The notes beneath the pieces are model-generated. The model did not search any database. It was given only the letters and a program-made list of their open reading frames with translations, and had not been told where the DNA came from. From the NCBI RefSeq assembly GCF_000013905.1, contig NC_007969.1:1230001-1262000 (forward strand): a DNA stretch of 32,000 nucleotides, given 5' to 3'. Shown here one piece after another: positions 10,356-30,490 of the stretch. Source of the stretch: Psychrobacter cryohalolentis K5 (GTDB lineage: Bacteria > Pseudomonadota > Gammaproteobacteria > Pseudomonadales > Moraxellaceae). The first letter of the stretch is position 1. Every line of letters starts with the position of its first letter. The position numbers were made by a program, and so were the translations under genes.

Positions 10356-10358
10356 AGC

Positions 10359-11642
10359 TTACTCTTGGTTCTGATTAACGAGGGCAGGATTGAGACGTAC
10401 AACTACGCTCATACCTGAGCGAATACGTCTATCAGGGTTAGTCGGTCGGGCTTTTACTTCAAAGGTACGAACATCAAAACCATCGTCATTGTTAGTCGGT
10501 CGCCAAGTGGCAAAGTCAGACAAGGTTGAAGTAGCATAAACAGTGAATTGCTTGGTATAAGGCTTTTCAGGTGATGATAAAGCGGGAATAGTACCCATGA
10601 ACCGCTGACCAATCGCAAACTGATTTAAGTAGGTTTCCGTGACATTTAAGACGACCCATTGATCATTGGTATTGACTAAGGTTAGCAGCGGCACACCTTG
10701 ACCGATCACTTCACCTGCATTGACGATGACATTATCGACGACACCAGAGATTGGGCTTTTTAAGTTGGCTTCTTCTTTCGCTACCAATGCTTCTTCTAAT
10801 TGCGCATCGACTTGCGCAACTTGTGCAGTCGCCGCTGACTTATCTTCACTACGTGCGCCTTCCATCGCTAACTCATACTGTAAGCGTGCTGCTTCGGTTT
10901 GATCTTGAGTTGCCAAATATTGTGCATAGGCTTCATCACGCTTTTGCCGCGCCATCAGTCCTTCTTCATACAGACGATTAACACGCTGATAAGTGTTTTC
11001 TGCCAAGTCGGATGCCGCTTTATGAGCTTGCCACGCTGCTTTTGCTTGAGCGATTTCTTGCGGGCGCGCCCCATTTTCTGCTTTATCTAGCTGGCTTTGT
11101 GCCATCTGTTTGCCAGCACGTGCCTGATTGATTTTTGCATTAATCTCAGGCGAATCCATCTCTATTAGCTGTTGACCGACCGTTACGGCATCACCTTCTG
11201 TGACTAATATTTTTGCAATACGTCCCGGTACTTTTGCCGCGATAGACGTTTGCTGCATTTGCATTTGCCCTTGGAGGGTAATAATTTGCGACTCGCTATG
11301 CTGATTGCTCTTGTATAAACCATAAGCAATCACACCCAAAATAACTAAAATCACCAGCGCCAAAATCGCCTTTTTAATCTTTGTTGATTTATTATCTTTT
11401 ACTGACTGGCGCTTATAGCTTGGCACCGTTTGCTCCGGCTCAATGCTAGTATCAGTATTGGTGTCCCTATCGGCATCAGTGCTGTTATTCATATTAGTCT
11501 TAGACGCATCAGCATCATTTGCATCGACCGTAGAATCCATGTTCGTGGGCGCTGGATTATCGTTAGTATTGGTCGATCCAGTCGATGTATTTAAGCCACC
11601 TAGTTTGCGCGAGTCGCCTGATTCGTTGGTAGATTCAGTCAT
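10359..11642 (-). CDS. HlyD-family membrane fusion (periplasmic adaptor) protein with a roughly 88-aa D/N/T/S-rich N-terminal extension
   Basis: It has a single TM helix (AILALVILVILGVIAYGLY), a lipoyl-like motif (AKVPGRIAKILVTEGDAVTVGQQLIEMD), a long coiled coil, and a beta-barrel domain (SPISGVVDNVIVNAGEVIGQGVPLL). Confidence 0.88.
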   Translation of the reverse strand: MTESTNESGDSRKLGGLNTSTGSTNTNDNPAPTNMDSTVDANDADASKTNMNNSTDADRDTNTDTSIEPEQTVPSYKRQSVKDNKSTKIKKAILALVILVILGVIAYGLYKSNQHSESQIITLQGQMQMQQTSIAAKVPGRIAKILVTEGDAVTVGQQLIEMDSPEINAKINQARAGKQMAQSQLDKAENGARPQEIAQAKAAWQAHKAASDLAENTYQRVNRLYEEGLMARQKRDEAYAQYLATQDQTEAARLQYELAMEGARSEDKSAATAQVAQVDAQLEEALVAKEEANLKSPISGVVDNVIVNAGEVIGQGVPLLTLVNTNDQWVVLNVTETYLNQFAIGQRFMGTIPALSSPEKPYTKQFTVYATSTLSDFATWRPTNNDDGFDVRTFEVKARPTNPDRRIRSGMSVVVRLNPALVNQNQE

Positions 11643-11731
11643 GACAGTGAGATTCCTAAAGCAATAGAGTCGGTAATAAGCAAAATAAATCGTTTGTCGT
11701 CTGATATTGCTAAGACGATAAATGGGCGATG

Positions 11732-13483
11732 TTATTTGTCATATAAAGTGGGTAGCCGAATATCGGCGGCATTGAGATAGGCATTAAAGGCAAGGGGCGT
11801 ACCACAGCTTTGCATAAGAGCAGCAAGTGATTGAACATAGCTATAAGCTGCTTGCGCTTGCTCCGTACGTGCTTTTAACGACTGCGTTTGCGCTTGGGCA
11901 ATCTCGACTGGCGTATTTAAACCCTCTTGTAATCCAAGCCTGCGCAAACGCAAGACTTCTGCCGCAAGCTCTACATTGCTTTGTAGAGCTTGATAGCGTG
12001 ATTGGGCGTTATTCACATCATGCCAGTTTTTTTCAACCAGTAATAATAGGTTGTCACTGACTTCAATCTCAGACAAATCAGCTTGACGTATCTTGGCATT
12101 ACTTGATGCCAGAGACGCAGTTTTATCCAGACCGCCCCATAATTTCCAACTCGCCGATACGCCAGCGACCCAGCTTGGGTCTTTTTCAATTTGCCCGTAG
12201 CCATACAGCATGACAGTCGGCTTGTAACCAGTATCCGATAGCGCATGCAATTGCTGAGCCTGAGCACGTTTGGCGGCGACTTTTTGTAGACCTGGGTGAT
12301 TGGTCAGTGCCAAATCTTGAAAGTAGCTGACATCAGGTAAGGGTCGGCTTGAGACAAACAAAGGTGTGCGAGGTTTAATGCGATACTCAGTGCGCAATAG
12401 ACGCTGTAAAGCTATCATGGCAAGACGTGCATCATTATTGGCATTGACAGATTCACTTTTGGCATCAGCAAGTGCCGACTGCGCTTCTAAGCGATCAACT
12501 CGCGATATAAAACCTTCTTCAAAAAGCCGCTGCGCCATATGGTCAGTCTGCTGCAAGGTATCATAGGCATCGTCACGTAAATAGGCGGCAATGATTGCCA
12601 ATTGCGCTTTAAAATAACGCTCAATCAAGGTGTTATAAAGCTCGTTTTTTTCCAATATACTGTCAGCTACGGCTTCTTGAGTACGAGCATTGGACGCGCC
12701 TGTCAGAGCGGCAGTACGTCCAGCGGTATAAATAGGCCATACTACCCCAAGTCCTGCGCCCGCCGTAGAGCCTGAACGTTTTAACTCGTAGTTATCTGGG
12801 ATACGCTCACCAACCAATTCACCAAAATTTGGCAAATCTGGAATGGGCGGAATAATGTCACCAACCCCGTTATTAATATCATTAACGATGCCGTTTTTTA
12901 GCGACGATAGATCAATGTCCGCATCCAAATTGTAGGTAGTGGCTGAAACACGAGCAAATACAAGTGGGTGGTCGATAGTTTTGAGGGCATCCGTTTGATA
13001 CTCGCTGGCAGCAATAGCGGCTTGATTGGCAGCGATTTTTGGGGATACTTGCAACAAAATATTTTGCGCTTGTTCAAGACTTAACAAGCTAGACACTTCT
13101 AACGGATAGCTGTTCTCTATGCTTTTATGGGTAATAGGATCGATAAGCGTGCTTAGAGCTGCTTGACGTCCATAGACCTCGCCCGTACTGTCGACACGTA
13201 TCGTCGCTGATTTTACAGAAGCTTCGTTTATAGAAGATTTGTTTGCAGAAGCCGCATGCTTAGAGGATACAGTTTTAGAGGGGATATTTTGATTGACCAT
13301 ATCAAGTGCACTTGATGCATTGTTTTGATTGTCGGCGTCGATAATCTGTGTCACATTGACAGCTATCATCTCATTTTGTGACTCATTCATATGCTCATTA
13401 GCGCGTGCAGAGGCAGTCGCCGCTATACTCATGAGCGTAATCGTCATTACGGCAGTGGACAGAGTCGATAGAGCAAATTTCAT
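11732..13483 (-). CDS. TolC-family outer membrane efflux protein with a roughly 120-aa low-complexity extension after the signal peptide
   Basis: The signal peptide is MKFALSTLSTAVMTITLMSIAATASARA. Two OEP-type repeats contain long helical segments (LEQAQNILLQVSPKIAANQAAI..., LRRLGLQEGLNTPVEIAQAQTQSLKARTEQAQA). It is the first gene of the operon. Confidence 0.85.
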   Translation of the reverse strand: MKFALSTLSTAVMTITLMSIAATASARANEHMNESQNEMIAVNVTQIIDADNQNNASSALDMVNQNIPSKTVSSKHAASANKSSINEASVKSATIRVDSTGEVYGRQAALSTLIDPITHKSIENSYPLEVSSLLSLEQAQNILLQVSPKIAANQAAIAASEYQTDALKTIDHPLVFARVSATTYNLDADIDLSSLKNGIVNDINNGVGDIIPPIPDLPNFGELVGERIPDNYELKRSGSTAGAGLGVVWPIYTAGRTAALTGASNARTQEAVADSILEKNELYNTLIERYFKAQLAIIAAYLRDDAYDTLQQTDHMAQRLFEEGFISRVDRLEAQSALADAKSESVNANNDARLAMIALQRLLRTEYRIKPRTPLFVSSRPLPDVSYFQDLALTNHPGLQKVAAKRAQAQQLHALSDTGYKPTVMLYGYGQIEKDPSWVAGVSASWKLWGGLDKTASLASSNAKIRQADLSEIEVSDNLLLLVEKNWHDVNNAQSRYQALQSNVELAAEVLRLRRLGLQEGLNTPVEIAQAQTQSLKARTEQAQAAYSYVQSLAALMQSCGTPLAFNAYLNAADIRLPTLYDK

Positions 13484-15608: not shown

Positions 15609-15892
15609 TTACTATGATAGATAGTGTTTTGCTTATTATTTAATAGCCGTTTTTCAATATTGTATAATCGACTCACCTAGAAACTACGTCAATTGACAAA
15701 GTTTTGGTATAGATACAGACTGTAACGCAATACCATCGTGATTTTGACACAGTTTACATATTCGACCTATCTGTCTTTGAGCTCAGTTCCTATACTTTAG
15801 AAGATTTAATAAAACGCTTAATCTGGCTTATATTGCTATTAAGCGGATTGACGATAAATAGAATATATAACAAATCAATTAAGGAAGATATT

Positions 15893-16570
15893 ATGAATAA
15901 CGACGGCCGTATTACAGACTCGAATAACCGTGTGATTACTGATGACTATCTTGAAGTTGGTGATAGAGAGCGTATTATCGATGACAATGAGCGCCGATTG
16001 ACTGGTAATGATCAGACAATCAATAACACTGTTATTAGACATGAAAATGACAACATTATAGAGGATCATGATGCGATTGATCGTACTGCTGTCAAGCATA
16101 TGTCGAAAGAAGCAAGAAGTGATCTGAATGCTGATCCAATCACAGGGGAGCCAGGCTCACACCCTGTAGGTACAGGTATTGGTGGTATTGGCGGCGCAGC
16201 AGCAGGTGCTGCTATTGGTACGATGGCAGGCCCATTAGGCACGCTTATTGGCGGAGCAATTGGTGCAATTGTCGGTGGCGGTGCAGGTCATGCAGCAGCT
16301 GAAGCGATTGATCCAACGCGTGAAGAAGCATATTGGCGTGCAGAGTATGCCAATGCCGATTACTATCAAGAAGGTCATGATTTCGATCGTGATTTGCATC
16401 CAGCTTACGCGGTAGGGTATGCTAACCGTGCACGTTATCCCGCTGATGCCCGCTTTGAAGATCATGAGTCAGATTTAGAGCGCTCATGGAACAATGTGAA
16501 AGGTGAATCACGTATGGAATGGAATGAGGCACGTAGAGCATCTCGTGATGCATGGAACCGCATTTCTTAA
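15893..16570 (+). CDS. Hypothetical glycine-zipper membrane/stress-type protein
   Basis: The ORF-track start at 15833 is TTG. The ATG at 15893 has AAGGAAG 6 nt upstream. The product has a D/N/R-rich N-terminus, a glycine zipper (GTGIGGIGGAAAGAAIGTMAGPLGTLIGGAIGAIVGGGAGHAAAEA), and a W/Y/R-rich C-terminal domain. Confidence 0.7.
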   Translation: MNNDGRITDSNNRVITDDYLEVGDRERIIDDNERRLTGNDQTINNTVIRHENDNIIEDHDAIDRTAVKHMSKEARSDLNADPITGEPGSHPVGTGIGGIGGAAAGAAIGTMAGPLGTLIGGAIGAIVGGGAGHAAAEAIDPTREEAYWRAEYANADYYQEGHDFDRDLHPAYAVGYANRARYPADARFEDHESDLERSWNNVKGESRMEWNEARRASRDAWNRIS

Positions 16571-18849: not shown

Positions 18850-18879
18850 TCTGTCTATTAAGTTTTAAAGACAGACATT

Positions 18880-18913
18880 AAAAAAATCCGACATTTATAT
18901 GTCGGATTTTTTT
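18880..18913. terminator. Bidirectional rho-independent terminator between the TetR gene (+) and the lipoprotein gene (-)
   Basis: aaaaaaatccgacat-ttat-atgtcggattttttt: a 9-bp core stem flanked by A7 and T7. It is preceded by a second hairpin, gtctgtct-N12-agacagac, at 18849-18876. Confidence 0.85.
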
Positions 18914-18964
18914 GCTAAATTTTTATGTATAAGCTTTACAAAATACTTATAGTGAATAAAATTT

Positions 18965-19750
18965 CTACATTTGATCAAGTGTAGGCAATACTTGTCCATT
19001 ACAGCGATCACCACTTGCATCGAAAGGCAAGTATTGCTCATAATAACGTACGATAAGCCCTTCTAATGCCACGTTTTCTTTAGAATCTTGAGCATTAACA
19101 AAAGCTTCACGTGCTTGTTCAAGCCAGCGGTCAGCCATGCGAAATTGGCTGCCTGCCTGCCGTGAATTATGTTCGCATTGGTCGGTCGCTGCCCAGATTA
19201 ATGCCACTTCACTAAATGCTATTTCACGGGGAGCACTTGCAATACCACCGCTGTCTTTAAGGGCGCTTAACGTTGCCCATAAATCAGGTCGCATTAGCGC
19301 TGATGAGGCAGATATATCTTGGATAAGAACAAGATCGTTTTCTGAGCCTTTTTTTAATGCTTGCAAAATAGCTTCTGCAGATTTTGCCGCTTCTAATCCA
19401 GCAGGTGAGCGACTATTCATGCTGTCTTTATGGATGGCATAGTTGAGCCAAGCTTGGGCTTTATAAGCAAAGTACTGTTGCTGCGCAGTTTTATCTTTTT
19501 GCTGATAATGCTGCAGTTCTGCTAGCATACAGCTCATCGCACGTTGCTGCGTATTTTGGTTTTTATATGTCGCTTTTAAATCCTGACTCTGGCAGTAATC
19601 AGAGGTGTCTACAGTAGTGATATGAGCACTTTTTTGAAGAGTCGTAGCTGTGGTTGATACACATGAAGTCGTTGATAATAGCAAAACAGCTGAAAACGCA
19701 GCACATATTGGATTTTTATAAGTAGCTACTTTAATAGTAGAGTAAAGCAT
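18965..19750 (-). CDS. Hypothetical secreted, probably lipidated, alpha-helical protein
   Basis: The ORF-track start at 19795 is TTG. The ATG at 19750 gives MLYSTIKVATYKNPICAAFSAVLLLSTTSC-VS, a signal peptide ending in a lipobox-like TSC. The mature part is A/Q/L/E-rich (helical) and contains 4 further Cys. Confidence 0.6.
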   Translation of the reverse strand: MLYSTIKVATYKNPICAAFSAVLLLSTTSCVSTTATTLQKSAHITTVDTSDYCQSQDLKATYKNQNTQQRAMSCMLAELQHYQQKDKTAQQQYFAYKAQAWLNYAIHKDSMNSRSPAGLEAAKSAEAILQALKKGSENDLVLIQDISASSALMRPDLWATLSALKDSGGIASAPREIAFSEVALIWAATDQCEHNSRQAGSQFRMADRWLEQAREAFVNAQDSKENVALEGLIVRYYEQYLPFDASGDRCNGQVLPTLDQM

Positions 19751-19847
19751 AACGCGAAAACCTTGTAGTAAGCTGATAAGTATCGGTGCTGGCAATTTTG
19801 AGACTGATTTTATCGCTTATCAAATGCTATAGTCAATTTACTTCAAA

Positions 19848-19876
19848 AATATAGTGCTATTGGAATAAGATGTCAA
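19848..19876 (-). promoter_or_regulatory. Near-consensus sigma70 promoter (TTGACA-N17-TATATT) for the lipoprotein gene
   Basis: The minus strand reads ttgaca tcttattccaatagcac tatatt. It lies in the gap between the 1762-aa gene stop (19965) and the lipoprotein ATG (19750). Confidence 0.55.
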
Positions 19877-19964
19877 AGTCTTTATCTTGCTTTAGTGCAT
19901 GTGAATAAGGAAAAACGATTCCAGAAAAACGTCATTCAAGATGGTGCCTTTTTAATTGACCGTC

Positions 19965-22900
19965 TTATAATGTAGAGGATACAGGTGCTGCACGTTTATT
20001 TTTACGTGGGTCTTCACGCTTAAATAGATCTTCATCAAACTTGAAGCGTAGTCTAAAGTAAGCGCCCTCGATGGTAGTATCGTCATAAGCGATGTCTTCA
20101 TCTTCAAAGCCCATGAAGTTATAACCAAGCGATAACCATAAATTGTTCATTGGATTATAGCCAACTTCAGCGCCAACTAAATAGGCTAGGTCATTTGCTT
20201 GCTTATTCCAATAAGTACCTGCTTGTAAACCAATATCCCAGCGCTCGCTAATATCATATAAGCCACGAGCATACAAAGCATGAGCGGTATTGTCACTTGC
20301 GATACCTTGAGCATCGTATTCGGTATATTTACCTGCATAGTGACCTGATAATGTTAATGGTCGCGTTGGATGGTAGTTACCGCTCCATGACCAGACAATA
20401 GCATCCTTTTGATAAGGGTCATCACCAGTGGCATTATCATCTAAGCGATATTCAAGCTTGGCCAGCATATCAAGCTGATTGCTATCGTAGTCGCGATAGG
20501 CAGCACCAAGTTGAAAGCGATTGATAGTCCGATGACCATCGTCATAATCAACTTTTGAATAAATATCTTTGGCTAATAAAGTCACTTCATCGTTATAGCG
20601 ATAGGCAACGCCAGCACTACCTAATAAGGTGTCACTGGTATCGCCCCAGCGTTTTTCTAGGCGCCCTGATGCTTTGTAATTTTCGTTAGCAAGGTATTCA
20701 ACGCCAAAACCTGCTGCAGTTGAGGTACTGTCTTTCTCACCCTCTAAAGATTCGACACGCTCGAGTAAAGTATTAAGCGTCAAACCTTTTTGCACATACC
20801 ATTTATTCTTTAGACCAATGGCAGCTTCCGCTTCGCGAGCACTGATGGCATCACGCATACGGTATTCACTATAAACCTTGCCATCTTTCATATAAGTGGC
20901 ATCAAAGCCGACAACAGTGCGTTGACGCTCCTCAGAATCGTCTAAACCATAGCTGCCAGACAAGCTATTGATTAAATCATGGCGAGCATAAAGTCGACCT
21001 AAATTACCCAGTGCTGTTTCACCGCCGATAGAGGTTGCGTTACGTGAGCTGTGTTCAATATCTTGCTCATACTCAGCAAATACCAATGAGTTATTTAGCT
21101 TTGGCAAACGCGCGGTTAGACGGGCGCGGGCAGTGGTGCCTTCGATATCTTTTTCAGTGTTGCTGACGTTGCTTAGCGCAGATTGATTAATGATGTCATC
21201 ATTTGCAAAAGTATCATTAGTAATATCCACCACATCTGTTGCTGCTTGGATATTACGTGAGGCTGCTGCTTCTTGTTTATAGTAGCGTACACCAATTTCA
21301 CCAACGATATTTTTGCTTAAACGCTGTTCGATACTGGCCTGTACGCCTTCAGTACTTGCATCAGTAATATGATCTTCTGTGCGTACGCCTTCAAGTTTAA
21401 GCGCAGTCTTTTTCTCGTTTAAAGTGTGGATGATTTCGATGCCAGATTCGGTACGACCAGCAGTTTGTGGTGACGCGCCAGTGACAAAACCGATATCGGT
21501 ATCGTTATGATAGGCTTTTGCACGGGTATGTTTTTTATTATCATAGTCAAGCTCGATACGTAGAGCGTCACCCTCAGCATTATCGCCTGTTAGTTTGTCC
21601 GCATTGATCTGATTGCTTGGCTCGAAATTTGGATTCTCAGCTTTGTTTTTGGCATATTCTGCGACCAGTTTTAGCTTGTCATTAAGTTTAACCACAGTAT
21701 TAACGCTAGCAAGCTCTTCTTTATTAAGTGGATCATCACTATTAATATAGCTGCCACCGATGGCAATTTTATCAGTCAATTGTCGTTTAGCAGCGACGCC
21801 ACCTACCCAATATTTCTCACCACCTTCATCAACTTCGACAGTAACGCGTAGGTAGATAGGGTTGCCATCGATATCTTGGCTAGCAATCGGTGATTTTAGA
21901 TATAAGCTACGGCTAATAGGATCAATTTCATAATCAGCAAAGCGCGTCAAGGTCTCACGGCGCACAATACGTCCAGGATTATTAGCATCACGGGTGATTA
22001 CTTCTATAGTTTCTGAATTTTCTAATACTGCATCAAAATCATTAGCAAGCGGGTAAGGACCTGAAATGCCCAAACCACGAGTTTCATTGACACGCTGTGA
22101 GGTGCTTGTTTCAGCGGCAAAAGCAGTAATACGCGTGTTGCTATCTTCAAACTGGGCTTTGACACCAGTCAGTGTACGATTGTATTGACCGAGCTTAATA
22201 CCTTCATCGTTGTCAATTTGAGTCTTTAAGTCGCCATACATGGCAAATGAGCGACCTTTATCTAGACGTACATATAGCTTGCTCGTCGATTGCGCATCAA
22301 AACCTTTGGCTGATGAGTCGCCGTAAACTGGATAGTATTCGCCCGGCTCGATATCACGGAACAGGCGCTCGCCTTTTTTGTCGCTGTCATAAGCAAGCGT
22401 TAATAGATAATCACCGCGTACTTTGCCTTTTAAGAACATTGCCGCACGACCCGTCGCTGAGTAATCATCGTTACCGGCTATTTCGCGTAATTCTTTTTCA
22501 AATGCACCTTGTGCGTCAGTGATATTACTACCATCAAAGTCTTTGAGCGCTATCGCGCCTTCAACGATACCAACAGCTATTAATGGACGCAATTGAGCCG
22601 TAAACTGTAGCGGAATTACTTGCTTATTGCTGCCTGTATCGATGATCATCTCACCTTTACCGGGTACGCTTGGCGCAGTCACGGAGATCAATAGCTCACC
22701 ACCATTGACAGTAACTTGCGTGCCGGCTTGGTCTTTACTGCTGTCTGCCAAGTTGATACGACCAATATTGGTATCAATGGTGATAGGAGTTGATGCTATA
22801 TAAGGACGACCATCACGATCTTTTAGACTGATAACGATTTGATAATCGCTGACGCCGTCTGCTGCCACCAGTTGTTTTTGGGTACGATAACTAATAGATT

Positions 22901-25238
22901 GTAAAATATCCGGTGTTAATACCTTGATAGTTTGCTCAGAGATAACTTTGCCATTCACGTCGGTTGCGACACCGCGTAAAGTATTAGTGCCACGCTTTAA
23001 ATCGACTGCGTAATAATCAAATGCAGTGACATTTTGCTTTTGTTGTTCAGCCGTTTTACCGATTTGTTCTCTTGATATGGCTTTACCGTTGGCATATAGA
23101 GTGAAAATAGAGCCCAGTGGGGCTTGTACCTGTACCATTTGTTTATAAGTGCTGAGCTGCTGACCTTCACTCAAATTAATGAAAGAGACATTATTAGTTG
23201 CCACTTCTTTAAGGTATTCTTCTAACTCTTTTTCTACAGGAGGTGCAATTTTAGTAATTGCCATCTCAACGCGATTGGCAGATGGGTTGACCATTTCATT
23301 GACGATGGCTGAATCGCATTGAATGCCTGCATCTAAAACATCGTTAGATTTACAGCCGCTGGCATTGATATTGTCTTTATTGTCGCGGTTATAGTCAGGA
23401 TCTAAAGTTAGCTCGCTTTTAACTGCTTGCTCTAAGCGATCGTTTTTGGCACCGATACTTTTGCTACGCGCAACAAGCTCTGCGTTTAAGCGTTCAGTAC
23501 TGTCCGCCATACCGCCAACGATGCCGAAATCGGCACGATGTAACTCGCCATATTTTAGGTCAACGAAACGGCTACCTGCATCGCCAGCATTACGATTGCT
23601 TTGAGTGACCAGTTCTGTGGCGTTTGGAATAGTAGTGCGGTCAACTTTTAGGACGTGGGTTTTAGCACTAATACCATAAAAGTTATATTTACCTTCAGGA
23701 TCAGTGACAGCAAAGTTACCGTTTTCCATATAGATACGCACGCCAGCAACACCAAGCTCACCATTTTGTTTTTGCTGAATGCCATCGCGGTTGATATCGT
23801 GGTAGACCTTACCAACGATGATGCCGTCTGTATTCATAACACCGCGATCGACTTCTACTTTCCACTGGGCTTCTCTTGATACGAGGCTTTGATCTTGCTC
23901 AGTTTTGGCAATAGCAGTCGCACGGTTAATGCCGTCACCGCCTAATGCTGATGAACCAACTAATACGCGATAAGTAATATCTTTACTAGTTTTGGCATCC
24001 ATATTCCCCAGACTTAAAACTTGATATTTGCCATCGGTTTTAAACTCAGTGGTTTGTGCTTTGTCAATGCTCACACTACCACCAACGTAGTCGAAGCCGC
24101 GCGGTAAAGCGTCTTTTAATTCAACGTTATAAGCCGTACTGGTACCATCATTTTTGATATTAATCGTATAATTAACATAATCACCGAGTGAGGCAGTTTT
24201 GACATCACCTTCTTTGGTAACTTGCAGGGTTGGGATATCATTAACGATGGCAATGTTGGTACTAATATTTTCTGTAATTTTTTGGCTTATACCCTGTGAG
24301 TCGATATAAGCATCCAGCTTAGCAACTAAATTAGCACCTTCTAGCGTCTGAATGATATCGTCATTAATGGTATTGGCGTTATTTTCTGTTGGTACTTCGA
24401 TGCGAAACTTTCCAGTATTGTCGCCAGTCTCGAGAGCTTTGAGTGAATATGTATCGCCAGTCTTAGAAGAAGTAATGGTTATCCATACTTGATCGCGTTT
24501 ATTATCTTGAACATTACATTTAGCACAGCTGGCTTCAAGATAGATATTTTCACCCACCTGCGATGTTCTTCTATAGCCATCCCATGAATAAAGCATAAAA
24601 TCGAGACGTGTTTCAACGATGATTAGCTCGTCACTCACTAAAGCGGTAATAGAAGGGTCTTCGACAACAGCAGCACCAAGCTGGATGCTAGCAGTATCAT
24701 CGGCTTTAGCATTGGTATCAGATAATGCTTGTATAGTAAGCTCAATGCTCTCGCTTTGTCCTAAAGCAATCTGAGCGGTTAAATTGTTATTTAACTTAAT
24801 CTCTTTATCAACACCATCATCGAAGCGTCCGTCGTTATTCAAGTCTTGATAGAGTTTTATGTTCGATAAACTATTAGGTATAGTCAGGCTCAAATCGATA
24901 GTCTGATCACTGTAACTGGTATTGGTTAGAAGGTTTTTCCAACTAACGGTCAAGCCAGGGGCGATAGTCTTTGTTGGCGGTGAAGTTAGGCTAATACCAT
25001 ATTGAGGAAAAGCAGACGATTCAACACTCACTTGGTTAGAAGTGCTATTTAGATTAAAGTTAGTACCGTTACTAATAATATAACTGGATTCAGCAGTATT
25101 TTTGATGGATTGTAGCAGAGGGTTAGGCGCTGCTAAGGCTATATTTGATTGCATAAGCAACATTGCCAATGACAGCGCAGAGATCTTCGCTGTACACAAT
25201 GCGATACGATTAGACGGTGTCATTACAGATAGAGTCAT
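19965..25238 (-). CDS. Giant (about 1757-1762 aa) secreted protein: N-terminal Ig-like repeat region (DUF11/TIGR01451, SdrD-B-like, Big_1-like) fused to a large C-terminal outer-membrane beta-barrel-like region
   Basis: The ORF-track start at 25253 is TTG; the first ATG is at 25238. The signal peptide is ...ISALSLAMLLMQSNIALA/APNP. The DUF11 motif is ASLGDYVNYTINIKNDGTSTAYNVELKDALPRGFDYV. The SdrD-B motif is GKVYHDINRDGIQQKQNGELGVAGVRIYMENGNFAVTDPEGKYNFYGI. The Big_1-like motif is LVAADGVSDYQIVISLKDRDGRPY. The last roughly 850 aa consist of amphipathic beta-hairpins with aromatic ends, finishing in GAYFRLRFKF. Confidence 0.8.
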   Translation of the reverse strand: MTLSVMTPSNRIALCTAKISALSLAMLLMQSNIALAAPNPLLQSIKNTAESSYIISNGTNFNLNSTSNQVSVESSAFPQYGISLTSPPTKTIAPGLTVSWKNLLTNTSYSDQTIDLSLTIPNSLSNIKLYQDLNNDGRFDDGVDKEIKLNNNLTAQIALGQSESIELTIQALSDTNAKADDTASIQLGAAVVEDPSITALVSDELIIVETRLDFMLYSWDGYRRTSQVGENIYLEASCAKCNVQDNKRDQVWITITSSKTGDTYSLKALETGDNTGKFRIEVPTENNANTINDDIIQTLEGANLVAKLDAYIDSQGISQKITENISTNIAIVNDIPTLQVTKEGDVKTASLGDYVNYTINIKNDGTSTAYNVELKDALPRGFDYVGGSVSIDKAQTTEFKTDGKYQVLSLGNMDAKTSKDITYRVLVGSSALGGDGINRATAIAKTEQDQSLVSREAQWKVEVDRGVMNTDGIIVGKVYHDINRDGIQQKQNGELGVAGVRIYMENGNFAVTDPEGKYNFYGISAKTHVLKVDRTTIPNATELVTQSNRNAGDAGSRFVDLKYGELHRADFGIVGGMADSTERLNAELVARSKSIGAKNDRLEQAVKSELTLDPDYNRDNKDNINASGCKSNDVLDAGIQCDSAIVNEMVNPSANRVEMAITKIAPPVEKELEEYLKEVATNNVSFINLSEGQQLSTYKQMVQVQAPLGSIFTLYANGKAISREQIGKTAEQQKQNVTAFDYYAVDLKRGTNTLRGVATDVNGKVISEQTIKVLTPDILQSISYRTQKQLVAADGVSDYQIVISLKDRDGRPYIASTPITIDTNIGRINLADSSKDQAGTQVTVNGGELLISVTAPSVPGKGEMIIDTGSNKQVIPLQFTAQLRPLIAVGIVEGAIALKDFDGSNITDAQGAFEKELREIAGNDDYSATGRAAMFLKGKVRGDYLLTLAYDSDKKGERLFRDIEPGEYYPVYGDSSAKGFDAQSTSKLYVRLDKGRSFAMYGDLKTQIDNDEGIKLGQYNRTLTGVKAQFEDSNTRITAFAAETSTSQRVNETRGLGISGPYPLANDFDAVLENSETIEVITRDANNPGRIVRRETLTRFADYEIDPISRSLYLKSPIASQDIDGNPIYLRVTVEVDEGGEKYWVGGVAAKRQLTDKIAIGGSYINSDDPLNKEELASVNTVVKLNDKLKLVAEYAKNKAENPNFEPSNQINADKLTGDNAEGDALRIELDYDNKKHTRAKAYHNDTDIGFVTGASPQTAGRTESGIEIIHTLNEKKTALKLEGVRTEDHITDASTEGVQASIEQRLSKNIVGEIGVRYYKQEAAASRNIQAATDVVDITNDTFANDDIINQSALSNVSNTEKDIEGTTARARLTARLPKLNNSLVFAEYEQDIEHSSRNATSIGGETALGNLGRLYARHDLINSLSGSYGLDDSEERQRTVVGFDATYMKDGKVYSEYRMRDAISAREAEAAIGLKNKWYVQKGLTLNTLLERVESLEGEKDSTSTAAGFGVEYLANENYKASGRLEKRWGDTSDTLLGSAGVAYRYNDEVTLLAKDIYSKVDYDDGHRTINRFQLGAAYRDYDSNQLDMLAKLEYRLDDNATGDDPYQKDAIVWSWSGNYHPTRPLTLSGHYAGKYTEYDAQGIASDNTAHALYARGLYDISERWDIGLQAGTYWNKQANDLAYLVGAEVGYNPMNNLWLSLGYNFMGFEDEDIAYDDTTIEGAYFRLRFKFDEDLFKREDPRKNKRAAPVSSTL

Positions 25239-25279
25239 ATGTTGCTTATCCAATAAAACAAGATGGGGGGGTAAAACTC

Positions 25280-25308
25280 CCCTAGCTTAAGTAAATTACA
25301 AGCTAGGG
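25280..25308 (-). terminator. Intra-cluster hairpin (9-bp stem, GC-clamped) followed by GAGUUUUA: a candidate partial terminator/attenuator between the 683-aa and 1762-aa genes
   Basis: The minus strand reads ccctagctt-gtaatttactt-aagctaggg gagtttta. A second AU-rich hairpin, tataagta-N8-tacttata, lies at about 25316-25339. Confidence 0.4.
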
Positions 25309-25387
25309 AAAGTCTTTATAAGTACCCGTAGATACTTATAGAGTTAAAAGTTCAGTTTAAGTTGATAATCTTAAGCTCAAAATACAA

Positions 25388-27439
25388 TTATGGCGTAGGA
25401 GTAACTACCCTAGCAGTTTTGACTTTTACTTTAAATTGCATGGTTTCAGTTGCTTGAGGCGCTAACATATCAATATTATTAGTAATGGCAGTTCCAGTAT
25501 CAGATGTTGTGCCATTAGTAGTCTCTACAGAATTCGCTACATAGTCAGCCTCATTTGAGAAGTTAGAAAATGCATCTGAGATAACGATATTTTTAATATC
25601 AAAACCTATGCCTGTAGGAGAGGTCGTATCAGCAGAAGAAGTATTTTTCGCTTGGACCTTATAAACAATACATTGGCCAGGCGAAACGTCTTTAATGTCA
25701 GTACTGACAAAATTCGCAGCAGGAGGTGTACCCACACAATCTGCATTTATCGCTTGGGTTTTCAGCAATGTTAAACCGCGAACAGTTGTTCTATCGGTGA
25801 CTGAAACCGATTGAGGCGCGCCTTCCTTACCTGGAATCAAGGTGACCACAGTTTCTTCGAATGTAGGAGTGGTAGAGTTTATTGGTGTAAATATTTTTGC
25901 ATTGGCTGATGACACGTTATATTTAATAGTGACAGTACCATTAGGGGCTATACCATTAGGTAAAGCAGAAAAGAGATCATAGACACCATCGACCGCGGTA
26001 ATAGTTTTATCCACTACTGTTGGTGTTGTGGTGTCGTTGCCATTTGGATAATAAGTGACAGTGACGCTATTAGGAACTATATTAATTTGGTCTGGCAGGT
26101 TACCGTCATTGTCATTGATAGTAAAAGTTAATTCCTCAGCTTTAATGCCCTCGACGTCTTTACCAGTGTTGGTGATGACCGTTTGATGTTTCACTTGACC
26201 GAGAGTACCTGAAGTCGGTGAAATCTCTCTGAAAGTTGAACCAGTTAGTGTTAGAGCTCGCTGAATAGTTGCTGAGGATAGTGGCAGTGTTGAGTCATCA
26301 CCTGGGTTAGCTGGTCGCTGACCGTTGAGGTTATTAATCTCGGTAGTAGGATAGAACGCACCAACATTTTGTTCTCTACTAGTGTCTGTACTATCGATAA
26401 GCGTATTATCAGTATTAGGATTGTTATCCAAGTCATCAGTCACTGTCACGTGATTGATAGCTGTTGCAGGAGTAAGTGTGCCTGTCCCTTTTTTGACTTT
26501 AAATTCAATAGTTATGTTTTGCCCTACTGGGATATTGATACCAGTAATGTTAAAGCCACTAGTACCTACAGCACCCGTATTAATGGGATCGATAGTGCCT
26601 TTAGTCGCAGTAGAACTGGTTTTGATATTAGCTAGTGTTAGTGCCTCTGCCATTACCAGACCATCTGGTAGAATATCTGCAATAGCAATATCAGTAGCAT
26701 CAGCCGTAAATGCAGTGTTGCCATCGTTGGTGACTACAACTCTATAAGTAGCTGTATCATTATCAAGATTATTGAGGTCTAAGCCATTAATAATCGTCTT
26801 AACGATACTAAAGGTAGGAAGCCTTGTAAAAGAGGTGTCAGTATTGATGAGTGTTTTATCTGTACCTAAAAGTGAACTAACCGCAGAGATTTCTAGTGGT
26901 TTGGTTTCACCACCTTTGTTACCAGTGGTTTTGGCATTAATAACAAGTACAATATAATGCCCTTTTTCAAGAGGAAAAACTCTGCCACTAGAGGCACCAT
27001 AGGGCGCATTATCTGTAGTACGAGTTGTATCTTCTACATTAAGCTCGTTATATATCTTATACGAGACAGTAGAGTTGGCCGTATCATAACCGGCAGGAGC
27101 TGTTGGCGTCGTGATAGCATAGTTATCAGTGCGGTTACCCGTGTTGGTCAAAGTATGCGTAAACTGAACAAACCCATTAGGCGCTACTTCTTTTCCAGTA
27201 TTAGTGACAGCAGGAACCAATGAGAATGATGTTTGCTCTGTTACCGTTATTTTTACTGTGTTAGATTCGACTTCTGGTTGAGCCTGACCACTCACATTAT
27301 AGCTAGCGGTAGCTTTGTTAGTAATCTCTACGCTCGTTGATGTTTTAGACGTCTCTACTGCATTAACAGTCGTGCTCATACCTAGTATAGCAGCGACGCC
27401 AATGGCTAATAAGCTGTAATTAAAAGTGCTTGATTTCAT
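25388..27439 (-). CDS. Secreted multi-domain DUF11/Ig-like repeat protein (683 aa), candidate major fibre/shaft subunit
   Basis: GGAG lies 6 nt upstream. The signal peptide is MKSSTFNYSLLAIGVAAILGMSTTVNA. At least 4-5 repeats carry the motif x-Y-x-V-x-V-T-N-x-G-N (FVQFTHTLTNTGNRTDNY, ATYRVVVTNDGNTAFTAD, VKHQTVITNTGKDVEG, PGQCIVYKVQAKNTS). The protein is T/N/S-rich and has only two Cys. Confidence 0.75.
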   Translation of the reverse strand: MKSSTFNYSLLAIGVAAILGMSTTVNAVETSKTSTSVEITNKATASYNVSGQAQPEVESNTVKITVTEQTSFSLVPAVTNTGKEVAPNGFVQFTHTLTNTGNRTDNYAITTPTAPAGYDTANSTVSYKIYNELNVEDTTRTTDNAPYGASSGRVFPLEKGHYIVLVINAKTTGNKGGETKPLEISAVSSLLGTDKTLINTDTSFTRLPTFSIVKTIINGLDLNNLDNDTATYRVVVTNDGNTAFTADATDIAIADILPDGLVMAEALTLANIKTSSTATKGTIDPINTGAVGTSGFNITGINIPVGQNITIEFKVKKGTGTLTPATAINHVTVTDDLDNNPNTDNTLIDSTDTSREQNVGAFYPTTEINNLNGQRPANPGDDSTLPLSSATIQRALTLTGSTFREISPTSGTLGQVKHQTVITNTGKDVEGIKAEELTFTINDNDGNLPDQINIVPNSVTVTYYPNGNDTTTPTVVDKTITAVDGVYDLFSALPNGIAPNGTVTIKYNVSSANAKIFTPINSTTPTFEETVVTLIPGKEGAPQSVSVTDRTTVRGLTLLKTQAINADCVGTPPAANFVSTDIKDVSPGQCIVYKVQAKNTSSADTTSPTGIGFDIKNIVISDAFSNFSNEADYVANSVETTNGTTSDTGTAITNNIDMLAPQATETMQFKVKVKTARVVTPTP

Positions 27440-27513
27440 ATAAAGCTCCGAATTAAAAAGTTCTAGAAGTTACGTTCAAAATAGTAACCAATGTATTTTC
27501 AAGAATGACTGTC

Positions 27514-27978
27514 TTAGTCAACGATGGTATTAAGGGCTACGGCTGCAGATTTATTGGCGGGTAATAACTTGATATTCCAACGTAAGGTACGGTATTCAGA
27601 AAAAGGAATTTTTACCATTTTGCCATCGACTTTGCGCATCAGTGGCATATCAGCATAGTTCTTGCCATCGATACTGCCTTGGGCGCTAGCGGGAGATACC
27701 TCACCATTAAAAGTCATATTAGCTGGAATGGGCAGGGTAACTGCTAAGTCATTGATATTTTCATTGATGGTATTGCTATAAGTTGCTTTGTACTGAATCA
27801 CAGTGCCCTTAGGTGCAGTCCGAACTGGTAAGTAACTAATTTTACCTTCACTATTTTTAACGACCTTGTTAGCGGTTAGCTCCATTTTTAGAGCTTCATC
27901 TGCATAAGCTGTATTTAACAAAAATACCGATGCTAAACTGGCTAATAAGGCAGTACGTAAAATGTTAAAACCTTTCAT
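27514..27978 (-). CDS. Secreted single-domain DUF11-like protein (154 aa)
   Basis: AAGGA lies 7 nt upstream. The signal peptide is MKGFNILRTALLASLASVFLLNTAYA. One Ig-like module is present: APKGTVIQYKATYSNTINENINDLAVTLPIPANMTFNG. Confidence 0.75.
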   Translation of the reverse strand: MKGFNILRTALLASLASVFLLNTAYADEALKMELTANKVVKNSEGKISYLPVRTAPKGTVIQYKATYSNTINENINDLAVTLPIPANMTFNGEVSPASAQGSIDGKNYADMPLMRKVDGKMVKIPFSEYRTLRWNIKLLPANKSAAVALNTIVD

Positions 27979-28250
27979 ATAGTATTCCTTGTTTACAGTA
28001 TTGTTATTAATGAGACTTAAATGTCATCTTATATGATTCAAAAATCGCAATCAGTAATATATAAAAGTTTAGGTAACATCAAATTTTTTCTTAAGGCTAT
28101 TGTCACAAACTAAATACAAAATTTCACTATAAATAAGACAAACGGCATTTTGAAGTGACTAAACGGTAGAAGCCCCGTCTTTCAAGATAGGGCTTTTGTT
28201 GAAAAAGGCAGAATTTTCAGTGTTGAGAATAATGCAAGAGAAAACTATGA

Positions 28251-29903
28251 CTAAGGATTTGCTGTGGTGCCATATTTGGTATTGAAGTAAAAAACGCGAT
28301 TGTTTCTTGCATTGATGGTAAGGGTTCTGGTTTTGACTTCACCATTTGCTCCAATAGCTGGATTCTCGGCAGCGTTATAATCAGTGGTTGAAAGTGGTGG
28401 GTTGGCAAGTACTGATGTGACTTGAGCGCCGTTTACCCCTTTTTTCTGCAGCACATCTCGCATCACAAAATCGCTGATCACGATATTTGCACGATTGGTG
28501 GCGGTAATTCTATAAGCAATACATTGTCCTGGCACAAGATCGTTGATGCTTGCAGAGCTAAATCCTACTCTAGGATCGTTATTGCCTGAAGTATTGATAG
28601 CAGGGTCAGTATAGTTGAGTGTAGTAGGACAGTTATTGATGTACTGGGCCTTTTTTAGAACCAGTGCTACGTTTGCTGCGATGACTTTACCGAAGTTATT
28701 ATCTGGATAATGGTAAGTGGTATTTGCAAATGCAATCACTTTCTTATTACTATTGGTACGGATAGTATAGACATTACCGGTATTATTATTTTTTTCTACT
28801 AAACAGAGATTATTGGTATTGCCACTGATGGTAGTAATAGGAACATTTATCTTATATTGACCGATAGTAGGTGTGCTACCATCAACCAATTGCGAACCAT
28901 AAACAGATCCATTTGTACAGTGAGTAAGCTCAACAGTACTACTAGGAATACCAGCTTCAGCATTAGGTGTAGCGCTATCGAATATACCGTTAAAGTAATT
29001 AGCGTTATTAGCATAAGGACCTGTTGTAATATTGGCGTTAGTAGCATTAGCATCTGTGATACCACCATTATCGTTAAAAACAATACCTGAGAAAGTATAT
29101 TGTGGCGTGTAGCAGTAGCTATCTACTCGAAACTGAAACCTTTGACTTGTAGGAGTAGTTACATTATTAGTATTAGTGTAGCTAAAAGTGACCGATCTGA
29201 TATCCTCGCTAAATAAGACAGATCCTTGACAATTTGTATCAAGAGCAGCAGTGCAGTTAAATGATGCATTTGTAGAAGAGGTCTGAAGCCCATTTGCCAG
29301 CTCAATGACACTGGATCCAGATAGTCTTTGAAAAGTCCCTTTAATCTTAGTGTTGTTTCGGGTTATGCCAGTGATGCTGACTAAATCATCCCAACCTGTC
29401 TTATTGCTGCCTATGCTTTTATCAATATCAAACGCGCTTATGGCAACATTATTTAAATAAAGAGAGTCACTATTCCCAGTGTTTTGAAAATCTAAAGTGA
29501 TATCAGAACGAGATGTTAGATCTTTGAAATTTCTATTAATATCCATAGCCGGATTGGCGCTAGTTCCTGTGATCGTAGTATTATTACCAGAAGTATTAAC
29601 GTTGATATCTTCAATAGTCATTTTGATTTTCAATGGAATAGACAAACTTGACGTACTTGTCATAGGCTGATAAGTATTTGTGTCAAAACTCTCTTTGAGC
29701 TTAGTGTAGTTGCTGTTATCGAATATTCCCTTAGTTGAGCTAGCTGGGCATGCTAGGTTAGCTCCAGGGTTAGGTGCAAGTGCGAATGATGAATTGCTGA
29801 TCGTAAGAAAAATCATCGCTGTCATCAACGCCAACATTCGATATATATATTCACCAAATAATTGTGAAACTATTACATTTACGAAGCGCTGAGTCTGATA
29901 CAT
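28251..29903 (-). CDS. Secreted Cys-containing protein (550 aa): novel N-terminal domain, SdrD-B-like domain and C-terminal DUF11-like module; candidate tip adhesin
   Basis: AGGGA lies 7 nt upstream. It has a long signal peptide ending in ...MLALMTAMIFLTISNSSFALA/PNP. The SdrD-B-like segment is FSGIVFNDNGGITDA...EAGIPSSTVELTHCTNGSVYGSQLVDGSTPTIGQYKINV. The C-terminal module (LVPGQCIAYRITATNRANIVISDFVMRDVL) is paralogous to the 683-aa C-terminus. Confidence 0.75.
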   Translation of the reverse strand: MYQTQRFVNVIVSQLFGEYIYRMLALMTAMIFLTISNSSFALAPNPGANLACPASSTKGIFDNSNYTKLKESFDTNTYQPMTSTSSLSIPLKIKMTIEDINVNTSGNNTTITGTSANPAMDINRNFKDLTSRSDITLDFQNTGNSDSLYLNNVAISAFDIDKSIGSNKTGWDDLVSITGITRNNTKIKGTFQRLSGSSVIELANGLQTSSTNASFNCTAALDTNCQGSVLFSEDIRSVTFSYTNTNNVTTPTSQRFQFRVDSYCYTPQYTFSGIVFNDNGGITDANATNANITTGPYANNANYFNGIFDSATPNAEAGIPSSTVELTHCTNGSVYGSQLVDGSTPTIGQYKINVPITTISGNTNNLCLVEKNNNTGNVYTIRTNSNKKVIAFANTTYHYPDNNFGKVIAANVALVLKKAQYINNCPTTLNYTDPAINTSGNNDPRVGFSSASINDLVPGQCIAYRITATNRANIVISDFVMRDVLQKKGVNGAQVTSVLANPPLSTTDYNAAENPAIGANGEVKTRTLTINARNNRVFYFNTKYGTTANP

Positions 29904-29982
29904 ATTGCTATCCCTATAAACTGATATTCACAAACAACTATTTATGTAAATACGCACGATAAACATAACCAAAAATCTGTGT

Positions 29983-30010
29983 ATATTACGTAATTCATCA
30001 TATTAAGCAA
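29983..30010 (-). promoter_or_regulatory. Candidate sigma70 promoter (TTGCTT-N16-TAATAT) for the 550-aa gene
   Basis: The minus strand reads ttgctt aatatgatgaattacg taatat. This would give a 5' UTR of about 70 nt. Confidence 0.35.
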
Positions 30011-30490
30011 TAATTTTGTAAATTTCCTAGAAAACGGATGAATGGCAGATTTAGTATGACGAAATACATATATTTCTGCTGAATATTATATTTATCACTC
30101 ATTAGAAAGAATTTCCCAACAAACCTCCCAAATATCTCAAAAAACATAATCACTATTTATTTTAAAAATACTTGTCATATTGGCATTTCTCTATAGCTAT
30201 AAACAATACGTGAATAAACCCCTATAATAGAGCGTCAATATCATTTGATGATGAAAGTCGCATATCGGCTGTCGTTTACTTTTACTACGATGTCTGTTTG
30301 AACCCCATGCCAAGCTACAGTTGCTGATTATTAGCACTGGTCTGTAATAGCCAAGACATATAATGGAATGACGAGATGCAGCAAGGAAGGCATTAGGTAA
30401 ATCGTTTGCTTACGAAAATATGTATAACTCTGTGATTTAATAATACCCTGCCACCGTGTAGGGATGACTGATAAAAAAGGATTAGAGAAG

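Follow-up and report, generated by a model that had tools for sequence, protein, structure and literature searches.

How can several secreted proteins of a double-membraned bacterium be joined into one surface structure when no known pilus machinery is encoded beside them? This question is raised by a locus of five genes in a 32,000-nucleotide stretch of the Psychrobacter cryohalolentis K5 genome (contig NC_007969.1, positions 1,230,001 to 1,262,000), which is called the window below. The original prediction, made from the sequence alone, described five co-oriented minus-strand open reading frames (ORFs) here, and these are real and lie where they had been placed: p550 (28251..29903, 550 amino acids, aa), p154 (27514..27978, 154 aa), p683 (25388..27439, 683 aa), the giant (19965..25253, 1762 aa) and p276 (18965..19795, 276 aa). 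The answer that we favour, with a confidence somewhat above even, is a surface fibre of a diderm bacterium, encoded here as a heteropolymer whose subunits would be joined head to tail by donor-strand complementation of split CLIPPER domains. The observation itself is real and far beyond chance.

All five proteins begin with a hydrophobic segment followed by an A-x-A-like site, and the claim of Sec-type signal peptides is borne out by this inspection, which was made without a dedicated predictor. The start of p550 is probably Met23. In the public record, the giant is 1757 aa long and begins at Met6, with 100% identity to 'DUF11 domain-containing protein [Psychrobacter cryohalolentis]'. The Pfam scan took in all ORFs of 120 aa or more across the window, and the five locus proteins were scanned with both Pfam and NCBIfam. 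Among the window ORFs, no PapD-like chaperone (PF00345/PF02753), usher (PF00577), sortase, POTRA domain or dedicated type I secretion system (T1SS) was found with Pfam, and none of the five locus proteins contains an LPXTG motif with a hydrophobic tail. The scan and the motif check thus uphold the absence of these components from the window, which had been noted earlier.

Truncated CLIPPER domains and the N-terminal extension

The p683 protein is a string of about five immunoglobulin (Ig)-like domains; the AlphaFold2 model of the mature protein has a predicted local distance difference test (pLDDT) value of 81.9 and a predicted template modelling score (pTM) of 0.61. Its C-terminal domain (aa 553-683; 25391..25783, minus strand) is a truncated CLIPPER domain, which ends after an 'FKVKVK' strand and contains the C568/C590 pair. 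In p683-like proteins, this domain starts with L-x-K-x-Q-A-L-D and holds the motifs P-G-x-C-I-x-Y-x-I-x-A-x-N and V-I-S-D. Profile comparison of the domain family with canonical CLIPPER gave Prob 96.9%. Every p683-like protein ends right after the 'F-x-V-K-I' strand of the C-terminal domain, and the orthologues match positions ~5-88 of the 114 positions of the PF01345 profile.

The p550 protein ends in a similar way. Its truncated CLIPPER domain (aa ~410-550; 28254..28676, minus strand) contains K418-x-Q, the C425/C461 pair and D483 in 'MRDVLQ', and the chain stops straight after an F-x-F-N strand. The C-termini of p550 and p683 are similar in BLASTP (E 7e-6), and the comparison of p550 with the p683 C-terminal-domain family by hhalign gave Prob 99.0% and E 6.2e-18 over columns 2-124 of 131. 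The N-terminal region of p550 is variable and has no family match. No homologue of p550 was found beyond Psychrobacter, Moraxella and Enhydrobacter, where the proteins are 540-1063 aa long. Other phyla have instead a very large downstream-encoded protein (1100-2700 aa) with CLIPPER or DUF7933 repeats. These large adhesins start like ordinary CLIPPER arrays and end in a truncated CLIPPER domain with Lys and Asp (Prob 98.9%, columns 5-100 of 138). These comparisons indicate that the CLIPPER domain at the C-terminus of p683 and of p550 is without its final two strands.

Within the genus, p550 is hypervariable (E 1e-157 to 1e-25; loci L002-L034), while an identity of 77-100% is preserved in the giant; such a contrast is suggestive of diversifying selection that acts on an exposed tip.

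The DUF11/TIGR01451 module had been assigned to four of the proteins, p550, p154, p683 and the giant. At the level of single sequences, it is significant in the giant (PF01345: E 3.6e-14, 53.5 bits at a cut-off of 24.6; TIGR01451: E 1.2e-14, 54 bits), whereas the DUF11 match of p683 (E 3e-4) and the TIGR01451 match of p154 (E 0.005) are below the threshold, and p550, like p276, gave zero Pfam/NCBIfam matches. At the level of family profiles, the module was recovered in p154 and in the C-terminal domain of p683, and it can be assigned to the C-terminal domain of p550 via its match to p683. Membership of the CLIPPER family (PF01345/TIGR01451) is therefore direct for the giant and is supported at the family level only for p683 and p154.

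Strands of the kind that these C-termini lack can be recognised elsewhere in the locus. A conserved segment of about 45 aa is located directly after the signal peptide in p683-like proteins and in the giants of all phyla. Its consensus is A-x-P-x-A-G-[TS]-x-I-x-N-x-A-x-A-x-Y-x-D...S-N-x-V-x-T-x-V-x-Q-V, and in the window it reads VEITNKATASYNV...SNTVKITV in p683 and SIKNTAESSYII...SNQVSV in the giant. The extension of p683 occupies aa 28-70 (27230..27358, minus strand; 'VETSKTSTSVEITNKATASYNV...SNTVKITVTEQ') and aligns to the last CLIPPER strands. The extension of the giant occupies aa 42-80 (25014..25130, minus strand; 'APNPLLQSIKNTAESSYII...STSNQVSVES') and carries the same donor motif. This motif is absent in p550.

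Invariance was assessed in a cross-phylum alignment of 17 p683-like sequences with a mean identity of 33% and 26 invariant columns. Residues I39, N41, A43, A45, Y47, S59 and N60 of the extension are invariant, as are K560, Q562, P587, Y593, N599 and D622 of the C-terminal domain. N41 aligns with the position of the CLIPPER isopeptide Asn. A sequence search of the PDB matched only 9IFR, to the CLIPPER domain, and the chimera query matched nothing. In 9IFR, the isopeptide triad is Lys715/Asp748/Asn806 (PMC12617251). Alignment with the complete CLIPPER domain of the giant places its Lys in 'VDVVKTT', its Asp in 'LTLNDTLG' and its Asn in 'VVNKVTAS'. The p683 counterparts are LTLLK(560)TQA, NIVISD(622)AF and VEITN(41)KATAS, in which 'LLK', 'VISDAF' and 'EITNKATA' correspond to 'VVK', 'LNDTLG' and 'VVNKVTA', respectively. 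The triad is not found within one domain at the C-termini of p683 and p550: Lys and Asp are located there, and the Asn-bearing strands are in the N-terminal extension instead.

The relationship of the extension to the missing strands was analysed by profile-profile comparison (hhalign) of the C-terminal-domain family, with or without an appended segment, against the canonical CLIPPER alignment of 138 columns. The family alone scored 62.5 and was aligned to columns 19-102, where the protein ends. With its own N-terminal segment appended, the score was 84.9 (E 4.7e-14), and the alignment reached from column 19 to column 132, with the Asn placed on the conserved Asn. Appending the reversed segment (score 61.0) or a mid-protein segment (score 64.4) did not extend the alignment. 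In Pfam searches with chimeras of three orthologues, the appended segment lengthened the PF01345 alignment from ~85-88 to 100-110 of 114 positions. The AlphaFold2 monomer of p683 has its highest confidence in the extension (pLDDT up to 96) and in the C-terminal domain (92-96), a pattern consistent with a joint domain formed by the two; the Foldseek matches of p683 in the PDB are generic multi-Ig proteins.

According to these alignments, the extension is homologous to exactly the strands missing from the truncated CLIPPER domain. The CLIPPER triad also appears to be split, with K560 and D622 in the truncated domain and N41 in the extension, and all three residues are invariant across phyla. We infer that the extension would dock in the acceptor domain.

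The giant protein, its partners and the conserved gene order

After the extension, the giant contains a complete internal CLIPPER (DUF11) domain (aa 343-455; 23889..24227, minus strand; PF01345 E 3.6e-14), which aligns to PDB 9IFR, and an SdrD B-like domain (aa 482-547; 23613..23810, minus strand; PF17210 E 1.8e-6). The two domains form a conserved module, which ends a separate adhesin in the split-type loci described below. A Big_1/Invasin_D3-like Ig domain (aa ~784-885; 22599..22904, minus strand) gave weak PF09134 matches and corresponds to residues 10-111, with seven strands, of the AlphaFold2 model. It stands directly before the barrel and is kept even in the short (~1050 aa) members of the family. 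The C-terminal barrel module (aa ~892-1762; 19968..22580, minus strand) has about 40 predicted beta-strands and no curated family model.

Between the SdrD_B module and the pre-barrel Ig domains, a helical or low-complexity linker is predicted (aa ~590-780; window ~22915-23485), with a Cys pair, C634/C646. This linker is the point where the split-type systems divide into two genes, and it might be the part of the chain that passes through the barrel lumen.

The last ~880 aa of the giant were compared with 1.84 billion representative proteins, grouped in clusters at 50% identity. The barrel-module family comprises 3261 clusters at E <=1e-3 and 1314 clusters at E <=1e-30. The module is always C-terminal, and the N-terminal regions before it range from ~170 to ~3700 aa; in the shortest members (~1050 aa), only a signal peptide and one Big_1-like Ig domain precede it. 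Family members are named 'hypothetical', 'DUF11', 'SdrD B-like' or 'large repetitive protein' in the source databases. One partial member of cluster P0124, which contains the Moraxella osloensis giant protein, is deposited as Streptococcus pyogenes (MHC5865427.1) and probably represents contamination in that assembly.

The AlphaFold2 model of the barrel region, constructed with a 42-sequence alignment, has a mean pLDDT of 75.7 and a pTM of 0.69. It shows the seven-strand Ig domain followed by about 40 beta-strands, mostly with tight turns between them. A small beta domain is inserted after the eighth barrel strand (aa ~1060-1130, 'SGPY...RDANNP...YEIDP'). The top Foldseek matches listed from the PDB are outer-membrane barrels only (MtrB, TonB-dependent receptors, SlpA, SprA, LptD), with template modelling (TM) scores of <=0.26, and there is no usher among the 50 best matches listed. 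The Foldseek search of the PDB thus found no solved structure resembling the module beyond generic large barrels. The outer-membrane barrel predicted at the C-terminus of the giant is therefore borne out by the strand number of the model and by the nature of its best matches, and neither profile nor structure searches placed it in a characterised usher, autotransporter or intimin family. More generally, scanning of the five proteins and their orthologues revealed no curated Pfam or NCBIfam model for the barrel, p154, p550 or p276.

The p154 protein is secreted and consists of one truncated CLIPPER-like Ig domain, in which the motif E-Y-R-x-L-R-W is conserved. Comparison of its family with canonical CLIPPER by hhalign gave Prob 96.8% over columns 17-103 of 138, and the alignment ends at the C-terminus of the protein. 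The catalytic Asp is replaced by Leu ('TLPIP'), and the Lys position is variable (K/Q/L/R/H). Judging by these features, p154 is most likely a periplasmic chaperone or cap that binds the extensions reversibly, a role that we assign with less confidence than the split-domain fibre itself; alternatively, it may be a minimal distal cap.

The p276 protein corresponds to the N-terminal helical domain of an OmpA-family partner; the OmpA domain (PF00691) was not detected in it with Pfam or NCBIfam. Orthologues outside Psychrobacter carry a C-terminal OmpA peptidoglycan-binding domain (E 1e-14 to 1e-20). The Psychrobacter proteins are 253-348 aa long, and the orthologues from other Moraxellaceae and other phyla (L035-L052), which keep the OmpA domain, are 360-460 aa long. 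The sequence comparison indicates that p276 has lost this domain in Psychrobacter. As for the putative lipoprotein gene described after the giant, a gene is indeed present there, but its lipoprotein status is uncertain: the lipobox is atypical (LSTTSC), and the orthologues are mostly OmpA-family proteins of the signal-peptidase-I type, with a lipobox in some of them only.

At least 591 relatives were found in a genome scan with the module alignment; 80 loci were retained. The gene order p154-like, p683-like (~700-900 aa), giant, p276-like/OmpA-like is common to seven groups (Moraxellaceae, Betaproteobacteria, Geobacteraceae, Nitrospirota, Verrucomicrobiota, Acidobacteriota and Balneolaceae), and the p683 orthologues are encoded directly upstream of the giant gene across phyla. 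Neighbourhoods were counted in the 63 loci that have a fused giant and sufficient DNA upstream of it (29 from Psychrobacter, 34 from other taxa). All 63 contain p154 (29/29 and 34/34, respectively), and 59 contain an upstream subunit with the N-terminal motif (28/29 in Psychrobacter, 31/34 in the others). The donor motif was found by a strict regular expression in 53 of the 63 giants. The genes of the cassette travel together across phyla, as the examination of conserved neighbourhoods proposed earlier has demonstrated.

A second p683 paralogue can be noted in some Psychrobacter genomes (L020:1457-7243; L051:1829-7198; L017:2-7208). In L020, a whole second p154-p683 pair is located upstream of the giant, which suggests a modular duplication of the subunit together with its partner. 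Some p683-like proteins carry the JGI label 'trimeric autotransporter adhesin', which is not backed by their domain content.

The split-type loci L001:1701-14355 and L081:1422-13724 consist of three genes and lack p154 and p683. The first gene encodes a CLIPPER/SdrD_B adhesin of 2640-2800 aa without the N-terminal donor motif, the C-terminal end of which matches aa 334-620 of the giant. The second gene overlaps the first and encodes a protein of ~1060-1095 aa that has a signal peptide of its own together with a Big_1 domain and the barrel. The third gene encodes an OmpA-family protein.

The putative fibre and its rival explanations

In the model that we propose, the subunits would enter the periplasm by Sec and fold there; oxidative folding in the periplasm before export is suggested by the conserved Cys pair of the acceptor domain (C568/C590). 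The extension of one subunit would then insert into the truncated domain of its distal neighbour and remake a continuous tandem-Ig stalk. The rebuilt Lys-Asp-Asn triad would probably lock the joint by a Lys-Asn isopeptide bond, although our confidence in this covalent lock is lower than in the split-domain fibre as such. As an acceptor only, p550 would be the tip, a place that in other phyla would belong to one of the large variable adhesins. Having both donor and acceptor, p683 would polymerise as the shaft. The giant, with a donor only and a barrel, would cap the last p683 with its extension and anchor the fibre in the outer membrane. Since donor-only and acceptor-only proteins exist, pairing in trans and an ordered heteropolymer would be expected. 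The assignment of p550, p683 and the giant to tip, shaft and platform, made in the original prediction, fits the distribution of donors and acceptors, the co-occurrence of the genes and the absence of known pilus machinery from the window, and in this form it stands as a prediction.

Other parts of the machine can be outlined with more caution. The barrel of about 40 strands may also be an usher-like export pore for folded, disulfide-bonded subunits, because it is very large and because short-form barrels serve separately encoded giant adhesins; we are less sure of this pore than of the fibre. The p154 protein would shield the extensions reversibly in the periplasm, a role suggested by its high conservation, its duplication together with p683 in L020 and its catalytically dead state. 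TpgA ties AtaA to peptidoglycan; by analogy, and given the OmpA domain common to both, a link from the machine to peptidoglycan would be provided by the OmpA-type partner, and p276 would be a remnant of such a partner. Taken together, these parts would make up a new class of pilus, namely, a sortase-independent autocatalytic fibre of split CLIPPER domains with the ~40-strand barrel, which would rank among the largest outer-membrane barrels made of a single chain, as both pore and covalent base and p154 as a dead-catcher chaperone. We put this complete picture forward tentatively and think it rather less probable than not to hold in all its parts.

The proposed assembly follows the logic of chaperone-usher pili (type 1 and P pili: FimH/FimA/FimI, FimC, FimD), yet no component is homologous. 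As in these pili, the tip would have a groove only, the shaft subunit a groove and an extension, and the terminal subunit would be located at the barrel; a single operon and Sec export of the subunits to the periplasm are also shared. However, there is no sequence or profile relation between them. The fold in the locus is CLIPPER, which is CnaA-like, and two strands together with the isopeptide Asn would be donated. In place of a PapD-like chaperone, the locus encodes p154, which is acceptor-like and would bind the donor strand rather than give one. The usher has 24 strands, whereas the locus barrel has about 40 predicted strands, gives no PF00577 match and forms one chain with the last subunit. 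The probable covalent lock is a further difference.

Such a lock is known from two other filaments. In the archaeal threads of Sulfolobus acidocaldarius (Saci_0406), subunits are first joined by donor-strand complementation, and an isopeptide bond between them forms next, the 'exchange and lock' mechanism (PMC9715654). In Clostridium perfringens BsaA, of the TasA family, the Asn is located in the donor strand, and Lys and an acidic residue are in the acceptor (bioRxiv 10.1101/2024.11.04.621531). The likeness is in mechanism only, and for the locus this mechanism is predicted from the invariant N41, K560 and D622. The threads and BsaA have other folds, belong to other families without homology to the locus proteins, involve no outer membrane and no barrel platform, and form homopolymers without a tip, shaft or base; Pfam, NCBIfam and the PDB sequence search gave no match to the TasA/BsaA or Saci_0406 families. 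So far, 'exchange and lock' is known for one archaeon and one monoderm bacterium only, in unrelated folds.

By analogy, the predicted chemistry resembles that of Gram-positive pilins, but without a sortase. Sortase pili of the SpaA and RrgB type would share with the proposed fibre CnaA/CnaB-type Ig domains, isopeptide chemistry, covalently joined subunits and tip, shaft and base pilins encoded together. In these pili, the sortase joins the Thr of LPXTG to the Lys of the pilin motif, whereas the locus has neither sortase nor LPXTG, and its bond would form autocatalytically in the rebuilt domain. SpyTag/SpyCatcher (PMC6539128) is likewise an isopeptide Ig domain split into a strand with one reactive residue and a truncated domain with two, which reconstitute spontaneously. 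That pair was engineered from CnaB, whereas the split in the locus would be natural, in a CnaA-like CLIPPER domain, and would serve polymerisation.

Acinetobacter silvestris B9T28_05395, the source of 9IFR (PMC12617251), shares with the locus the domain family, the Lys/Asp/Asn motifs, the nature of a Gram-negative surface protein and an OmpA-type anchor. It is, however, a single-chain adhesin with complete domains and intramolecular bonds, for which no split domain, barrel fusion or accessory subunit is described. Type V systems and the AtaA-TpgA pair also have a passenger and a barrel in one chain, a Big_1-like Ig domain beside the barrel and an OmpA-like partner. The type V barrel has 12-16 strands compared with about 40 here, and the locus adds the donor extension before the passenger, which is N-terminal like that of classical autotransporters, as well as extra subunits. 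The classical autotransporter barrel (PF03797, 12 strands) gave no match in the giant, the C-terminal module of which is ~870 aa long. The inverse autotransporter barrel (PF11924) was not detected; the sub-threshold Invasin_D3/Big_1 matches are to one Ig domain, and the barrel of the giant is C-terminal. No TpsB, POTRA or TPS domain of two-partner secretion was matched by Pfam or NCBIfam in the locus proteins or their orthologues. Full-text searches of the literature brought up no account of either the cluster or the barrel family, and papers on Tat-fimbriae and on Litorilinea deal with unrelated systems. We rate the locus as a previously undescribed, widely distributed putative assembly system.

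Several explanations compete with the split-domain fibre. It is possible, although we regard it as unlikely, that p550, p683 and the giant are separate monomeric fibrillar adhesins, the giant being self-anchored in the manner of an autotransporter, and that the N-terminal segment is part of the first Ig module or a sorting or recognition signal read by p154 or the barrel. CLIPPER and SdrD_B domains do typically build the stalks of monomeric fibrillar adhesins (PMC12617251), the first domain that follows the segment is always of a similar kind in p683 and the giant, and the split-type loci, with one giant adhesin and a short barrel protein but neither p683 nor p154, suggest that the barrel serves single adhesins. 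Independent adhesins leave unexplained, however, why p683, p550 and the downstream adhesins all end at the same point inside CLIPPER, why the segment shows homology specifically to those strands that are missing, and why Lys and Asp are invariant in a domain devoid of Asn while the Asn is invariant in the extension. An improbable variant is complementation in cis, in which the extension of p683 folds into its own C-terminal domain to give a closed monomer with an intramolecular isopeptide bond and no polymer. Residue conservation is equally compatible with cis and trans, and the pTM of 0.61 is relatively high for a five-domain chain whose N- and C-terminal parts are both very confident. Yet AlphaFold2 monomer runs self-complement true donor-strand subunits as well, giving 'closed' forms (PMC11821415), and the giant has a donor without an acceptor, while p550, p154 and the downstream adhesins have an acceptor without a donor, which only pairing in trans would satisfy.

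We give equally little credence to an envelope complex in which the barrel of the giant is a porin or translocon for other cargo, or a tether between the outer membrane and peptidoglycan together with the OmpA partner, and the Ig proteins are accessories. The barrel module is the most conserved and most widespread part of the system, its short forms carry one Ig domain only, and an OmpA-family gene follows the barrel gene in many phyla. These short forms are nevertheless still coupled to a gene of a giant CLIPPER/SdrD_B adhesin, and the hypervariable tip genes together with the distribution of donors and acceptors indicate an exposed, ordered polymer. A divergent member of a known pathway, be it chaperone-usher, type V (autotransporter, intimin or two-partner), sortase pili or the type IX secretion system (T9SS), is very improbable. 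The weak Invasin_D3/Big_1 matches beside the barrel, SprA, LptD and usher-sized barrels among the generic Foldseek matches, and the CfaB pilin trimer among those of p683 point in this direction; against it, Pfam and NCBIfam gave no usher, PapD, autotransporter, intimin-barrel, POTRA/TpsB, sortase or T9SS match in the locus proteins and the window, LPXTG is absent, and the TM-score is <=0.26 to all the solved barrels listed.

Some findings also speak against the split-domain fibre itself. In both p683 and the giant, the extension is always followed by a first Ig domain of similar type, and it could be an integral part of this N-terminal module. The gain in Pfam score from the appended extension is small, and the chimera made from the window's own sequence lost its weak match. 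The split-type relatives (L001, L081) have no p154, p683 or extension, and the barrel therefore has a role independent of the proposed polymerisation. In Psychrobacter, the partner protein is devoid of the OmpA domain. Finally, the fibre model names no energy source or catalyst for ordered assembly.

If the split-domain fibre is correct, double-membraned bacteria have a further route of fibre assembly beside chaperone-usher, type IV, curli, type V and conjugative pili, and covalent isopeptide-locked pili extend beyond Gram-positive bacteria and archaea. A function would also be obtained for an extensive family of giant outer-membrane barrels that has no family model, and natural tag/catcher pairs, one catcher being non-reactive, would become available for protein engineering. 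The cluster is found in hundreds of species from at least seven phyla, including Acinetobacter and Moraxella, and its hypervariable tip genes suggest a role in interactions with surfaces, hosts or phages.

Surroundings of the locus in the window

The neighbours of the locus are aceE on one side and the TetR/EEP pair on the other, with an AT-rich intergenic region, as had been described. The suggestion of an accessory insertion, by contrast, is not supported. Among the Psychrobacter loci, the tetR flank is visible in 33, the aceE flank in 24 and both in 23, and the locus lies between aceE and tetR/EEP wherever these flanks could be seen; its GC content is like that of the surroundings. Recent horizontal insertion was rejected on these two grounds, and because of the constant flanks and unremarkable GC content, the locus is ancestral in Psychrobacter.

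The intergenic region between the divergent aceE and the locus (29904..30430) is AT-rich (GC 0.32) and presumably contains the promoter; promoter-like matches in it are no commoner than in shuffled sequence. Between the convergent tetR and p276, there is a hairpin with a perfect 16-bp stem and A and T runs at its flanks (18879..18914), which is probably a bidirectional, terminator-like element.

The other genes of the window are housekeeping or unrelated: rpsF, genes of an RDD protein, phosphoenolpyruvate (PEP) synthase and a dihydrolipoyl-dehydrogenase-type enzyme, an OEP/HlyD/ABC-2 efflux set, and genes of an FGGY kinase, EEP, TetR and aceE. The efflux set (7858-13483, minus strand) comprises four genes, which encode an outer-membrane efflux protein of 583 aa, an HlyD-family adaptor of 427 aa and ABC-2 permeases of 434 and 397 aa. 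It has no adjacent ATPase gene in the window and is unrelated to the fibre locus. A T1SS role for it was rejected, as the set is of the efflux type and unrelated plus-strand genes are located between it and the locus. An ORF of 245 aa (15833-16570, plus strand), which starts with TTG, is located between the genes of the FGGY kinase and EEP and contains a weak glycine-zipper outer-membrane-protein motif (PF13488, E 2e-4).

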